The translations under genes were made by a program, and so were the position numbers. The notes under the pieces were generated by a model that worked only from the letters and a program-made list of their open reading frames with translations, was not told where the DNA came from and searched no databases. DNA of 64,000 nt, from NCBI GenBank assembly GCA_003345545.1, contig PRDH01000021.1, positions 1 through 64,000 of the forward strand, written 5' to 3'. This DNA comes from Candidatus Thorarchaeota archaeon (lineage in GTDB: Archaea; Asgardarchaeota; Thorarchaeia; Thorarchaeales; Thorarchaeaceae). Shown here in pieces: positions 18,352 through 22,373 of this stretch. Positions within the stretch are counted from its first letter, which is position 1. Every line of letters begins with the position of its first letter.

Positions 18352-19551
18352 ATGAGCCTAATCTATGATAGAGATACTTGCACAGGATGCATGCTCTGTC
18401 CGAAGGCCTGCAACTTCGGAGCAATCATGAAAGACGGTGATAAGGTCAAGTTTGATTTCGACAAGTGTGTCCTCTGCGGCTCGTGCGAAGAAGTCTGCCC
18501 CGTGGACGCCATCAAGATCGAGCGGAAGAAGATCGATCCTAGCAAGATTGCTGAGTACAAGAATGTCTGGGTCTTCTGCGAGACCACCGGAGGACGGCTG
18601 AGAAGTGTTGCCCTGGAGCTCGTCACGAAAGGCAGAGAACTTGCCGATAAGCTGGGTGAGAGACTTGTCGCTGTGATCATTGGTAGTGATATTACAGGTC
18701 ATGCTCAGACCCTTGTTCATCATGGTGCGGATGAAGTACTTGTAGTAGATGCAAAGATATTTGCAGATTATACTACCGATGCATATGCCATTGCTATGAC
18801 GTCACTCATTGCGTCCAGAAAGCCTGCTGTTGTTCTCTACGGCGCGACCAGCAATGGCCGTGACCTTGCACCCCGTATTGCGGCTCGGCTCGGGCTGGGT
18901 CTCACAGCTGACTGTACTGGTCTTGAGATCGATGAGAAGCGTCAACTCATTCAGACCAGACCTGCCTTTGGCGGCAACATCATGGCTGAGATCATCACTC
19001 CCTCCACTCGCCCTCAGATGGCAACAGTGCGTCCGAACGTCTTCAAACCCAAAGAACCTGACACCTCACGCAAGGGAAAGATCGAGAAGGTGAACATGCA
19101 GGTCAGCCCTGTCCAGGTTCGAACGCGAGTCTTGGAGAAGGTGAGTGAGGTCGTTGAGGGTATGAAGGCAGTCGATGAGGCTGATATAATCGTCTGCAGT
19201 GGGCGAGGAATCAAGGATCCGGCGAACCTTGAGCTGCCCAGGCAACTTGCAAAACTGCTTGATGCTGCTATTGGGGGGTCCCGCCCCATCGTTGATATGG
19301 GCTGGCTTCCTCCAACACAACAGGTCGGGCAATCAGGGAGAACAGTCTGTCCGAAGCTCTACTTTGCGCTCGGAATATCTGGAGCTATTCAACATCAGAT
19401 CGGAATGGCCTCAAGTGATACCATAGTTGCCATCAACAAGGACCCAGAAGCTCCGATTTTCAGTATAGCGGACTTTGGAATTGTAGGAGACCTCTTCACG
19501 GTCTTGCCCGAAGTGATTGCAGAGGTAAAACGAGTATTAGATTCAAGATAG
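18352..19551 (+). CDS. etfA: Electron transfer flavoprotein subunit alpha with N-terminal 2x[4Fe-4S] ferredoxin
   Basis: Two CxxCxxCxxxC motifs, then GLTADCT, RPQMATVR, QVGQSG, GISGAIQH, AINKD. Confidence 0.97.
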   Translation: MSLIYDRDTCTGCMLCPKACNFGAIMKDGDKVKFDFDKCVLCGSCEEVCPVDAIKIERKKIDPSKIAEYKNVWVFCETTGGRLRSVALELVTKGRELADKLGERLVAVIIGSDITGHAQTLVHHGADEVLVVDAKIFADYTTDAYAIAMTSLIASRKPAVVLYGATSNGRDLAPRIAARLGLGLTADCTGLEIDEKRQLIQTRPAFGGNIMAEIITPSTRPQMATVRPNVFKPKEPDTSRKGKIEKVNMQVSPVQVRTRVLEKVSEVVEGMKAVDEADIIVCSGRGIKDPANLELPRQLAKLLDAAIGGSRPIVDMGWLPPTQQVGQSGRTVCPKLYFALGISGAIQHQIGMASSDTIVAINKDPEAPIFSIADFGIVGDLFTVLPEVIAEVKRVLDSR

Positions 19552-19570
19552 AGATATCACCATCTATCTT
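19506..19570 (+). repeat. etfA 3' end plus terminator, functional copy A of a dispersed direct repeat
   Basis: GCCCGAAGTGATTGCAGAGGTAAAACGAGTATTAGATTCAAGATAG + 19 nt ending TCTATCTT. Confidence 0.9.
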
Positions 19571-19627
19571 TTCTTGCTCCATTCAACATATTGTAATATT
19601 CACGCAAAAATCCGATCTGCGGCAAAC

Positions 19628-20098
19628 ATGGACGCTGACTTCTCTTTCACATCTCGATTCAGAGCAATCGTGATTCTCATTGGCGTCCTTGTGGTCTTCG
19701 TCTTACCCTATGCGTACCATGTAGATGTGGGACCCGGCCCCAACGGGCTCGTGGCGATCCTCTGGATGCTTCCTGAGAACTCTGGTATCATTCTCTTAAC
19801 AGCTCTTGAATACTTCACTATTTACTATCTCTACCGACTCGTTGTGTTGACTGCAGTTTGGAGATACCAGCAGGGGAAAATGAAATCGCGAATACTCATG
19901 CTCCATGGACTAGTAGCGGAATTGATTCCAGTCCTCATTTCTATTCCGGCAACCTTGTTTCTCAATTCAGAGGGGGAGAACTTATACCCAATTATGATTC
20001 CACTTCCTTTTCTGTTCCTCTACTGCGCGGTGCTAGTACTTTCGAAACGAGTCATGACAAAGAGGAATGGCCAAAGCCATCAGAAACGATCAGAATGA
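19628..20098 (+). CDS. 4-TM hypothetical membrane protein (paralog of 22875-23420)
   Basis: Hydrophobic; WRYQQGK and IPLPF motifs shared with the paralog. Confidence 0.7.
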   Translation: MDADFSFTSRFRAIVILIGVLVVFVLPYAYHVDVGPGPNGLVAILWMLPENSGIILLTALEYFTIYYLYRLVVLTAVWRYQQGKMKSRILMLHGLVAELIPVLISIPATLFLNSEGENLYPIMIPLPFLFLYCAVLVLSKRVMTKRNGQSHQKRSE

Positions 20099-20211
20099 GA
20101 GATAGGAGTTGTTTCTCTATCTTCACCATTCTATTGAGAACCCAGTTCTTTAGCTCTGAACGAGTCGCAAGATTTGTAGTAAGAGACCTCATTCAATCTC
20201 TTTCATGAGAC

Positions 20212-20276
20212 GCCCGAGGTGATTGCTGAGGTCAAACGAGTACTGGATTCAAGATAGAGGGCTTACCCTCTATCTT
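20212..20276 (+). repeat. Orphan copy of etfA 3' end plus perfect terminator hairpin
   Basis: 41/46 identical to 19506-19551 and encodes the same PEVIAEVKRVLDSR*; hairpin AAGATAGAGGG-CTTA-CCCTCTATCTT. Confidence 0.95.
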
Positions 20277-20472
20277 CCTTACTTTTCAATTATCCCGAGT
20301 TTATTAGCTCGGCATATAATTGAGTAGCACTCAATCCATTGTCAGATTGTTTTTTCAGAAATTGAGGGTTTCTTTCAACGTTTTCCATTGAGACTGTTGC
20401 GTCAAGATGTACACATATATTGAGCAAATTCTCGTCTGCACATATCACGACGTGAGATTAGGAGGCATTTAA

Positions 20473-21618
20473 TTGAATTACAGAGTTCTTATTGTTGTAT
20501 TCGTCATCATAGTACTTGGTGTCCAGACCTCTCATCTTTCTGATGCAGAATATGTCCATTCCAATATCACGGTCAAACCTGAGGCTAGAATGGGACATGC
20601 AATGGTATTTGATCCTCACAACGATGTGGCGGTGATTTTTGGAGGAGCGAGTATGGAAGGTGAGCATCATCTTCTTGGAGGCACATGGATTTATTCATAC
20701 ACGGAAAACTCCTGGACTGAACTTGTGCTGACACCCTCTCCACCTTCTGATGATAATACCGTAATGGTCTACTGCAATGAAACAAATGAAATCATCTTCT
20801 ATGGCGGTGACGCCGATCCATCAACATGGTCGTTTGATTGCGAAAATCAGGCGTGGTCACGAGTGATAACATCGGCGAGTCCAGGATTCCGGGATTCACA
20901 CGCTATGGCATATGACCCCCAAGAGAATGTTGTTATTCTCTTTGGAGGTCTCGATGGAGAAGGAGGAGCGGGAACCTCCGACCTCTGGAAGTTCGACTGC
21001 AGCAGTCGAGAGTGGACCGAGCTCTTTCCAGAAACAAGACCTCTTGCACGATATGGCCATGTCATGGTCTATGACGAGTCCATCAATAGAATAGTCCTAA
21101 CCTGTGGAAACGCGTATCCCCAAGGCTATCAGGACGATACTTGGATCTGCACCACATCAACAAACAATTGGACTGAGTTGACACCGATCGGAACTCCCGA
21201 CGCTCTTAAATGGGCATCAATGACATATGACTCAGTGAATCAGAAGTGCATCCTGTTTGGAGGGGTTATTGGAGCTGATGCTGTTAACTACACTTGGATC
21301 TATGATGCCACCTTGAACACATGGTCACGACGTTATCCAATTGATGCTCCTGCTGATAGGTTTAACACAGGACTTGCTTTTGATTCGAATAACGATGTTG
21401 CAATCCTATTTGGTGGGTGTTCCGATGGTCTGAATGCCTTCGATGATACTTGGGCCTACTCGTATGAGAGCAACGTATGGACAAACATGGAAGGGGATTC
21501 CGATACTACAACGACCGGACTTGCACTTGACCCAATGCTGCCTGCACTAGCACTATCGATCGGTGTTGCAGTGATAATTGTAACTCTCATCCTACGTAGG
21601 AGAACTCGAGATCATTGA
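20473..21618 (+). CDS. Secreted Kelch-repeat beta-propeller with C-terminal TM anchor
   Basis: Six R.GHAM.(Y/F)D...LFGG...W.Y...W-type repeats; signal peptide; TM+RRR. Confidence 0.9.
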   Translation: MNYRVLIVVFVIIVLGVQTSHLSDAEYVHSNITVKPEARMGHAMVFDPHNDVAVIFGGASMEGEHHLLGGTWIYSYTENSWTELVLTPSPPSDDNTVMVYCNETNEIIFYGGDADPSTWSFDCENQAWSRVITSASPGFRDSHAMAYDPQENVVILFGGLDGEGGAGTSDLWKFDCSSREWTELFPETRPLARYGHVMVYDESINRIVLTCGNAYPQGYQDDTWICTTSTNNWTELTPIGTPDALKWASMTYDSVNQKCILFGGVIGADAVNYTWIYDATLNTWSRRYPIDAPADRFNTGLAFDSNNDVAILFGGCSDGLNAFDDTWAYSYESNVWTNMEGDSDTTTTGLALDPMLPALALSIGVAVIIVTLILRRRTRDH

Positions 21619-21668
21619 AGCAGTCAAGATGAATTAAGCTGAGAGATACAGGTATTGTCCTCTATCTT
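21605..21668 (+). repeat. Decayed copy of etfA 3' end plus terminator
   Basis: Codon-for-codon LEIIEAVKMN*AERY vs PEVIAEVKRVLDSR*, with the same 19-nt tail ending CCTCTATCTT. Confidence 0.75.
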
Positions 21669-21735
21669 CTCGATTTCTCTCCTCTCCGATTGACATTATC
21701 TAGCTGGTTGCGTGATTGCATAGGCATATGTCCGA

Positions 21736-22350
21736 ATGTGGCCAATACATAGTGGGAGACATGAATTGGCCGGGCCTGGGCATTTGGGTGGCATTCCCGA
21801 TGCGATAAAGAGCATTCAACATCGTATTCATGTATTCAGGAGACTCATTGCACGACGTATCGCTGTCCTGCTATTCTTTCTCTATCTTGCCGTTTTGGTG
21901 GATGTTGGAGGTACTGTCCTTGGCGACCTCAGAACTGGGTTCTACTATGGTAACTATGGAAATACGCTGTTCCCCTATCCGCATAACAGAGGTTTTTTGC
22001 TTCCCGTGATAACTCCGGTTCCTCCAATCGAAGCATTCATCTATGCTTTATTCGTCTATCAAGGGATCTGGATCGCTTGGACAGCTCTAGGCATCATCTA
22101 TATCATGATGCCCCTTGCCATTTGGGCATATAGGGCCCTGAAAAGACCAACACCAGGGCTTGCGCAGGTGAAGCAAGAGAAAGAAGAGAAGATTGGTGTC
22201 CTTACAGGGGCGCTTGCGTTTCTTTCTATTCTGTTCTCAGTCGCAACTCTCACTATTGATACCAATCTCCATTTCTATGGATTCATCCCCTTCTTAGTTG
22301 CACTGGGGCTCTCATCAGTACTTGTTGGCATCTTGATTCAGAACTGTTGA
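21736..22350 (+). CDS. Hypothetical membrane protein
   Basis: About 5 TMs; start uncertain. Confidence 0.6.
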   Translation: MWPIHSGRHELAGPGHLGGIPDAIKSIQHRIHVFRRLIARRIAVLLFFLYLAVLVDVGGTVLGDLRTGFYYGNYGNTLFPYPHNRGFLLPVITPVPPIEAFIYALFVYQGIWIAWTALGIIYIMMPLAIWAYRALKRPTPGLAQVKQEKEEKIGVLTGALAFLSILFSVATLTIDTNLHFYGFIPFLVALGLSSVLVGILIQNC

Positions 22351-22373
22351 AGTGCTTGCTGAAGACATTCCTC

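Follow-up and report, generated by a model that had tools for sequence, protein, structure and literature searches.

In staphylococci, composite islands of the staphylococcal cassette chromosome type (SCC/SCCmec) occupy the rlmH (orfX) 3' end, and other islands are found at the 3' ends of guaA or prfC; these islands have dedicated Ccr serine or tyrosine recombinases and short repeats (about 15-20 bp). Flexible islands are replaced by homologous recombination between conserved flanks. The closest described systems to the locus presented here are the tycheposon islands of Prochlorococcus, which are tRNA-anchored additive genomic islands (bioRxiv 10.1101/2020.12.28.424599), followed by integron cassette arrays and integrase-less attC clusters (CALINs), known from Archaea as well (PMC9668308). 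Asgard archaea also harbor aloposons, which feature tandem giant genes (3,000-6,000 residues), tRNA integration sites and four conserved upstream genes including a ParA-like ATPase (PMC8813620). Here we analyze a stretch of 64,000 nt (the window; contig PRDH01000021.1, positions 1 to 64,000) from a 2.69-Mb, 93% complete metagenome-assembled genome (MAG) of a Thorarchaeota member of the Asgard archaea (G000), which belongs to the genus that includes SMTZ1-45. In this window, etfA, encoding an electron transfer flavoprotein (ETF) subunit, is followed by serial partial copies of its own 3' end and terminator, between which lie passenger genes.

The anchor protein carries the ETF N-terminal domain (PF01012, E = 1.1e-54), the ETF_alpha FAD-binding domain (PF00766, E = 2.9e-32) and an extra N-terminal Fer4 domain, and its gene lies immediately downstream of etfB. 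EtfA is conserved at 77-96% amino acid identity across the genus, and its reading frame stays open in 18/18 genomes. With the tail copies lettered A to E and the passengers numbered P1 to P3, the array reads etfA-A / P1 / (B) C / Kelch (P2) / D / P3, with each addition amounting to about one gene and all three passengers co-oriented on the etfA strand. Segments of foreign DNA have entered in succession immediately behind etfA, and each addition places a copy of the last 45-165 nt of etfA, together with a terminator, to the right of the cargo; on either side of an insert lie direct repeats, each a partial copy of the target 3' end, and the target gene is intact.

This arrangement is a property of the genus. 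Relics of the etfA tail, one to three per genome and always on the same strand, lie 0.6-5 kb behind etfA in ten of the 17 relatives and in one additional MAG (L058), and the interval between etfA and the conserved downstream block is hypervariable, ranging from ~60 nt in G024, which together with G023 and G012 has almost nothing separating etfA from the conserved downstream genes, to several kb in other species. Cassettes measure 0.6-2.7 kb, and their cargo, which is found on either strand in the relatives, differs from one to the next (aldo-keto reductase, major facilitator superfamily transporter, helix-turn-helix regulators, radical SAM, hemerythrin, CAAX protease, Kelch and many unknowns), with certain cargo families reappearing in different species at different array positions. 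P1 has a homologue (54% amino acid identity) in the array downstream of etfA in G004, in the opposite orientation, and homologues of P3 lie behind etfA relics in G001 (71%) and SMTZ1-45 (41%). The Kelch gene has a homologue (72%) in the G011 array with an identical gene-relic junction, where the stop codon is the TGA within the CCTGAA of the relic and gene and relic overlap as in G000. G011 contains at least five extra etfA-tail copies, one pair of which brackets 17 kb. On contig G011:C115 (L105:2042-19590, L106), two long copies stand around this block of ~20 ordinary-looking genes, which, judged by the sizes and order of its open reading frames (ORFs), resembles the DNA that immediately follows etfA in its sister species G042; beyond it lie another two cassettes, one of them Kelch.

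To place the individual copies, we used a nucleotide profile of the etfA end (-90 to +30 relative to the stop codon) built from the 17 relatives with G000 left out, and searched it across the whole of G000, with 2,243 segments centred on the stops of other long ORFs as controls (Table 1). Copies A, C and D rank as the best three matches genome-wide and lie together on a single strand of the etfA locus (E = 7.5e-23, 1.7e-8 and 1.5e-4, respectively), and the best control reaches 8.7 bits; these three copies are solid. A (19506-19570) and C (20212-20276) form a 65-nt direct repeat of 85% identity that spans the final 42 nt of etfA, the stop codon and the stop-overlapping hairpin (AGATAGAG...CTATCT), encodes the identical 14-residue peptide and represents the sole close copies of this tail in the entire genome. 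Homology of C reaches about -69 across a 10-nt indel, and C has a counterpart in G001 at L036:5198-5262. Several tail alleles exist in the genus, with A and C being of the PEVIAEVKRVLDSR-stop type. D reads L-EIIEAVKMN-stop-AERY and is a decayed version of the LPEIIEAVKKIQAER-stop allele found in G004, G011 and G022, in which a Pro codon has been lost, a Gln codon has become TAA and the stop TAG has become TAC (Tyr). Since D is of another allele type than A and C, it is not a local duplicate of A; it is closest to the relics of G011 and the resident tail of G042 and has its junction in common with G011.

Copies B and E are of a different quality. The score of B is reached by 0.4% of the controls, and B has an R-stop followed by an AGATAG..CTATCT hairpin that folds no better than shuffles (z = -0.9); its assignment as a remnant of an etfA tail is marginal, if plausible. 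E matches at 14 of 21 positions in a targeted 21-mer test in which 5% of the control gene ends do as well, and at the corresponding site in G001 only the first 9 nt (GAAGTGCTT) recur, with the remainder differing; E is thus indistinguishable from chance (p about 0.05) and is unproven as a tail copy. An initial annotation of this stretch, made from the sequence alone, had proposed that the passenger genes are set apart by five successive copies of the etfA 3' end and terminator, that C encodes the same peptide as A, and that B and E were the weakest assignments. The architecture, the A/C identity and the ranking are all borne out here, and of the five copies three stand, with B marginal and E at the level of chance; rather than resembling random gene ends behind an invariant region, D lies far above the 2,243 controls, the region downstream of etfA varies among relatives, and most of these have relic arrays of their own.

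Table 1 Features of the etfA locus (window positions; bit scores refer to the etfA-end profile)
Feature	Position	Strand	Evidence
Copy A, working etfA tail (PEVIAEVKRVLDSR-stop) with stop-overlapping hairpin	19506..19576	+	direct repeat with C; 49.3 bits
Copy C, displaced etfA tail, allele type as A, perfect 11-bp terminator hairpin	20179..20279 (core 20212-20279)	+	34.9 bits
Copy D, decayed etfA tail of other allele type (EIIEAVK..AER) with hairpin, overlaps Kelch stop	21606..21672	+	22.2 bits
Copy B, possible type-2 tail remnant (..ER-stop and AGATAG..CTATCT hairpin), marginal	20076..20127 (about)	+	4.2 bits
Copy E, putative 18-21-nt remnant overlapping the P3 stop	22346..22366	+	no profile match
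etfB, electron transfer flavoprotein beta subunit	17558..18349	+	PF01012, E = 6.5e-53; 18/18 genus loci keep etfB
etfA with N-terminal 2x[4Fe-4S] ferredoxin domain, anchor gene	18352..19551	+	PF01012, PF00766, Fer4
P1, small multi-pass membrane protein, 156 residues from ATG	19628..20098	+	ORF; weak DUF2070 match only
P2, Kelch beta-propeller protein, hydrophobic anchors at N- and C-terminus	20473..21618	+	PF24681, E = 5e-68
P3, membrane protein without known family	21736..22350	+	ORF; no Pfam match
DUF6144 gene, convergent, first gene right of the array	22374..22799	-	PF19641; synteny common to G001 and G017

The tail copies retain terminator hairpins, with folding energies of -8.7 kcal/mol for A, -16.6 kcal/mol for C (z = -6.0) and -11.6 kcal/mol for D. 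The spacing from the stop codon to TCTATCTT, pointed out beforehand as shared among copies, is indeed 19 nt (18 nt in B), which for D is true only when counted from the ancestral stop position (TAC), and it is constant because the terminator hairpin itself is homologous. The AGATAGAGG..CCTCTATCTT hairpin is the native etfA terminator of several species. This ancestral form is found on the working gene of the relic-free G018, G009 and G012 and also of the relic-bearing G014, G002 and G011; within arrays it often resides on the distal relic, with other terminators on most working genes that have insertions. The 9-mer CTCTATCTT occurs nine times in the window versus 0.77 expected, and four of these occurrences (5742, 17993 on the minus strand, 21880, and 49903 on the minus strand) lie outside the etfA-tail copies.

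Across the genus, the left edges of the relics fall into discrete classes, at about -166 to -145 (eight relics), -127 (two), about -100 (two) and -45 (five or six). A preferred junction near -45 in etfA is real, as anticipated in the initial annotation from the P-E-V codons at which copies begin: the edge maps to Pro-Glu codons (CCNGAR), recurs in independent events and coincides with the breakpoint of a chimera in G015 and the start of a shared tract in G017 and G007. The G015 relic is identical to the working tail of its sister G024 at 99 of 103 positions (96%) over -166 to -46, whereas the working tail of G015 itself matches this relic at only 76 of 103, which indicates that the native end was pushed downstream and that the gene now ends in imported sequence. 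An imported tail can thus close the working gene, with the native one displaced downstream and left to decay, and the G015 arrangement is what an additive (Campbell-type) insertion produces.

Species also trade entire cassettes with one another. The etfBA genes of G017 and G007 are 79.5% identical (1,945 nt), whereas the next 1,700 nt from -45, which comprise the tail, the terminator and a cargo gene of 470 codons, are 94.4% identical, with 0 mismatches from -45 to +36; identity drops to 70% ~20 nt into the relic. This cassette is the unit exchanged recently between G017 and G007, and G001 carries it too, at an ordinary 72% identity. The left junction of the exchange is at -45 and the right at about -106, and this difference is what two homologous crossovers would be expected to leave, rather than one conservative core. 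The product of the exchanged gene in G001, G017 and G007 (L036:3663-5072 on the minus strand, L037 and L038) falls in no Pfam family, and its N-terminus looks hydrophobic and membrane-protein-like. A gap-repair (ends-in) reading of the G017/G007 mosaic was considered and rejected, as the relic from -105 to -46 shares no more than 73% identity with the copy resident in that genome. G011 and G020 have the same two tail alleles in reversed order. Inspection of the sequence left of the relics revealed no conserved sequence there, that is, no common attP arm.

G000 contains a second array of this kind at an unrelated anchor outside the window. Its single 16S rRNA gene (C81:66871-68432; Rfam RF01959, 1246 bits) has behind it about ten copies of its ~100-nt trailer, 85-95% identical and 1.2-1.5 kb apart (C81:66871-80332; L102:2872-16333), and the cargo between them includes a BNR/Ycf48-like propeller, an LVIVD-repeat protein, and GNAT, PIN and DUF3368 proteins, among others. 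The architecture is the same as at etfA.

We searched for recombinases and mobile forms. The 93% complete G000 genome yielded neither a tyrosine recombinase (PF00589), Xer-type included, nor a serine recombinase (PF00239), and just 8 of the 28 genus genomes contain either one (8 for each family), largely on short contigs; G002, G004, G005, G007, G011 and G017, like G000, have arrays and neither family. Among ~25 cassettes examined in 18 genomes, no recombinase was found in or beside a cassette, and no etfA-tail copy was found beside an integrase or on an element-like contig. The extra copies on G011:C115, G015:C188, G024:C67, G016:C260 and G019:C299 were considered as candidates for an attP-bearing element and turned out to be further array pieces or contig breaks with no adjoining recombinase; G024:C67 has relics at both ends, no terminal overlap and is not circular. 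Likewise, the uncharacterised proteins of 390-630 residues that lie next to relics do not form one new recombinase family, as they show no mutual similarity. An EtfA search of metagenome contigs for near-identical strains differing by one cassette recovered none, only the contigs of G017 and SMTZ1-45 and one independent contig, L158, whose array is identical to that of SMTZ1-45. Low-depth variant pieces are present among the contigs of four sequencing runs over window positions 18900-22900, and the assembly graph of one run (X1) holds two 112-nt alternatives within P1 (19633-19744) that differ at four positions and at which contigs break, which points to co-existing strains.

We propose that the etfA 3' end is a hot spot of insertion and exchange worked by host homologous recombination, and we assign a probability of roughly 0.5 to this statement as a whole, the choice of enzyme included. 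The topology alone, serial additive insertion with displaced tails, is considerably more secure, and we regard it as very likely. In this scheme, the general recombination machinery of the host would perform the reactions with no need for a dedicated integrase, and it would use the conserved repeats derived from etfA as portable homology arms; additive insertion would follow when a circularised fragment crosses over once, and a double crossover would replace a cassette. Host homologous recombination is favored by the recombinase-poor genomes, the lack of common left-flank sequence, the unequal junctions and the 16S anchor.

Several observations weigh against this proposal. The -45/-46 junction is found in about eight contexts and is too sharp for random crossovers, so that a recurrent break 45 nt before the stop finds no explanation in a model of homologous recombination. 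No relic reaches beyond about -166, a limit that random fragments would not predict, although common descent from one founding duplication could be its source. All genomes compared are MAGs, all insertions are old and within-genome copies are at most 85% alike; none of the copy pairs is recent enough to reveal the stretch of identity required for recombination. The model gives no account of where the first duplication came from or of the entry of a gene between two repeats. No joint, circular or excised form, skipped cassette or presence/absence polymorphism appeared in the contigs of the four runs over 18900-22900, where contigs cannot show rare forms. Finally, the MAGs are incomplete, and a recombinase could sit on an unbinned element.

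Given the sharp junction and the bounded relic length, an enzyme that is site-specific, or at least prefers certain sites, is still in contention. The same topology might be generated by a site-specific recombinase with an att core in the etfA tail near -45, the cassettes being non-autonomous cargo mobilised in trans or left by decayed elements, much as in the islands at the 3' ends of tRNA genes, rlmH (SCC) and guaA. Inserts flanked by partial copies of the target 3' end, with older inserts pushed outward by newer ones, are what such an enzyme leaves, and the Pro-Glu junction in independent events, the bound on relic length and the tyrosine and serine recombinases of some genus members, on contigs that are possibly mobile elements, fit it as well. 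Set against this are the cassettes and genomes lacking any such enzyme, although novel recombinase families would escape the two Pfam models, and the absence of etfA-tail copies next to integrases. Moreover, while the recurrence of -45 resembles the crossover core of an attL/attR pair, the right junction of the G017/G007 exchange lies elsewhere, the G015 relic is native on its left and foreign on its right, the reverse of a single-core attR, and the 16S trailer anchor with the same architecture would require several specificities. We consider this explanation somewhat unlikely, yet the strongest of the rivals.

The remaining explanations fare much worse. The relic hairpins could in principle be attC-type sites for an integron integrase, the array then being a CALIN; the single-gene cassettes, each closed by an imperfect or perfect hairpin beside the cargo stop, would suit this, and Asgard archaea reportedly show an enrichment of integrons and CALINs (PMC9668308). 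However, attC sites are imperfect palindromes with R''/L''/L'/R' boxes, their structure being conserved, and do not derive from a neighboring gene, and these repeats align to 45-165 nt of etfA coding sequence plus the terminator, and the hairpin is the terminator of etfA itself; many copies in relatives bear different hairpins; GTTRRRY/RYYYAAC cores are not visible by eye at the boundaries; and the cargo, co-oriented in G000, lies in both orientations among relatives. With no IntI and no PF00589 match in G000, and none among the cassette genes of the 18 genomes, this reading is highly improbable. A purely local origin, in which the etfA end was duplicated in tandem and decayed, or terminators arose by convergence or chance, and the passengers arrived by unrelated routes, is just as improbable: hairpin terminators are common, CTCTATCTT occurs elsewhere in the window, and B and E are at or near the chance level, but A, C and D are the three best genome-wide matches of an independent profile, D is of a different allele type, more than ten species show this architecture with cargo of other kinds, and the mosaic identity shows transfer between species. 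Least probable of all is an assembly or binning artefact in which chimeric contigs join strains at a shared etfA end, since, although MAG assemblies often break here (etfA tails contain the starts of G024:C67 and G016:C260, and G015:C66 stops ~300 nt past a relic), the copies differ by 15-30% and bear decay mutations, unlike assembly repeats, contigs from the runs of three studies span the A/P1 junction and those of one independent run span P1/B/C without differences, an independent metagenome contig has an array identical to that of SMTZ1-45, and arrays are found in MAGs of many projects.

Taking both anchors together, we tentatively suggest, with somewhat less confidence than for homologous recombination at etfA, that this genus has a general, integrase-free system of gene-cassette exchange in which the 3' ends of highly conserved genes (etfA, the 16S trailer) function as portable anchors of homology; at these anchors, cassettes of a single gene would be gained, stacked, lost and passed between species, with a preferred break or junction inside each anchor, and the whole might be an archaeal functional analogue of the integron that runs on host recombination or an undiscovered enzyme.

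Other repeats in G000 are recorded here as observations in their own right. Within the window, a 122-nt direct repeat of 78% identity (45558-45679 and 46614-46735) has its right copy abutting the stop of a minus-strand gene of 152 codons (46724-47182) and its left copy ~1 kb downstream, past an opposite-strand gene of 231 codons; this is possibly a further pair of anchor and relic. At C34:20084-22136 (L103), a 59-131-nt repeat is present three times (97% identity, ~0.9-1.1 kb apart). Further pairs, in each of which a long ORF carries a 57-187-nt copy at its 3' end and an orphan copy follows 0.6-1.5 kb downstream, are located at C5:998/2098, C31:6474/7388, C38:55/644, C47:10542/12067 and C59:4991/6499. 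A genome-wide count of ORF ends paired with orphan downstream copies gave 11 in the anchor configuration, etfA included, versus six in the mirror configuration, which is about half as frequent; this weak enrichment is suggestive only and is not used as evidence.

Gene gain in Asgard archaea, the closest prokaryotic relatives of eukaryotes, is little known, and this lineage seems poor in classical mobile elements. At etfA, a conserved metabolic gene serves as a docking site at which accessory genes are queued and traded between species 20% apart in their core genes, with breakpoints mapped to the base. If the process is integrase-free, it represents a transfer route overlooked by mobile-element finders, which look for integrases, attC sites and tRNA genes; should an enzyme take part, its site would be sought at the sharp -45 junction. 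In either case, the relic copies record the order of insertion and are usable to date gene flow in uncultured lineages. With different genes at the same spot in related species and no integrase in sight, the locus looks like an undescribed gene-swapping route, and full-text literature searches returned no description of such arrays in Thorarchaeota.

Set beside the known systems, the etfA array matches their architecture and fails the integrase and attC tests. The 0.6-2.7-kb cassettes have none of the features of aloposons, and the integrated elements of Atabeyarchaeia, like aloposons, were set aside as a match on account of their other architecture, with tRNA sites or an 11-bp att and integrases. 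As in SCC-type islands, the 3' end of a conserved protein-coding gene is hit with its frame kept, and direct repeats of the target end separate stacked elements; unlike these islands, etfA shows no such enzyme, and its repeats are long, length-variable and mosaic. The G017/G007 tract (94% versus the 79.5% background) resembles the allelic replacement of flexible islands by two crossovers, but one homology arm at etfA is a relic copy of the other, so that additive insertion and loop-out deletion are possible. Integrons and CALINs share the mostly single-gene cassettes, the hairpin-bearing repeats between them, an integrase that is often not nearby and the functional outcome, a swappable store of accessory genes; the etfA repeats differ in being the coding tail and terminator of the anchor rather than attC, there is no IntI or attI, cargo comes in both orientations, and the recombination chemistry is probably different. 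Relative to the tycheposon islands, the anchor is a protein-coding gene (and elsewhere in the genome a 16S trailer) in an Asgard host, the units often comprise one gene, no tyrosine recombinase or hallmark gene is present in the etfA units or, for G000, in the genome, and the repeats are up to 165 nt versus about 40 nt. What the two have in common is cargo queued behind a conserved anchor in units bounded by partial copies of the anchor 3' end, with incoming units displacing older ones inward and degenerate partial copies scattered along the array.

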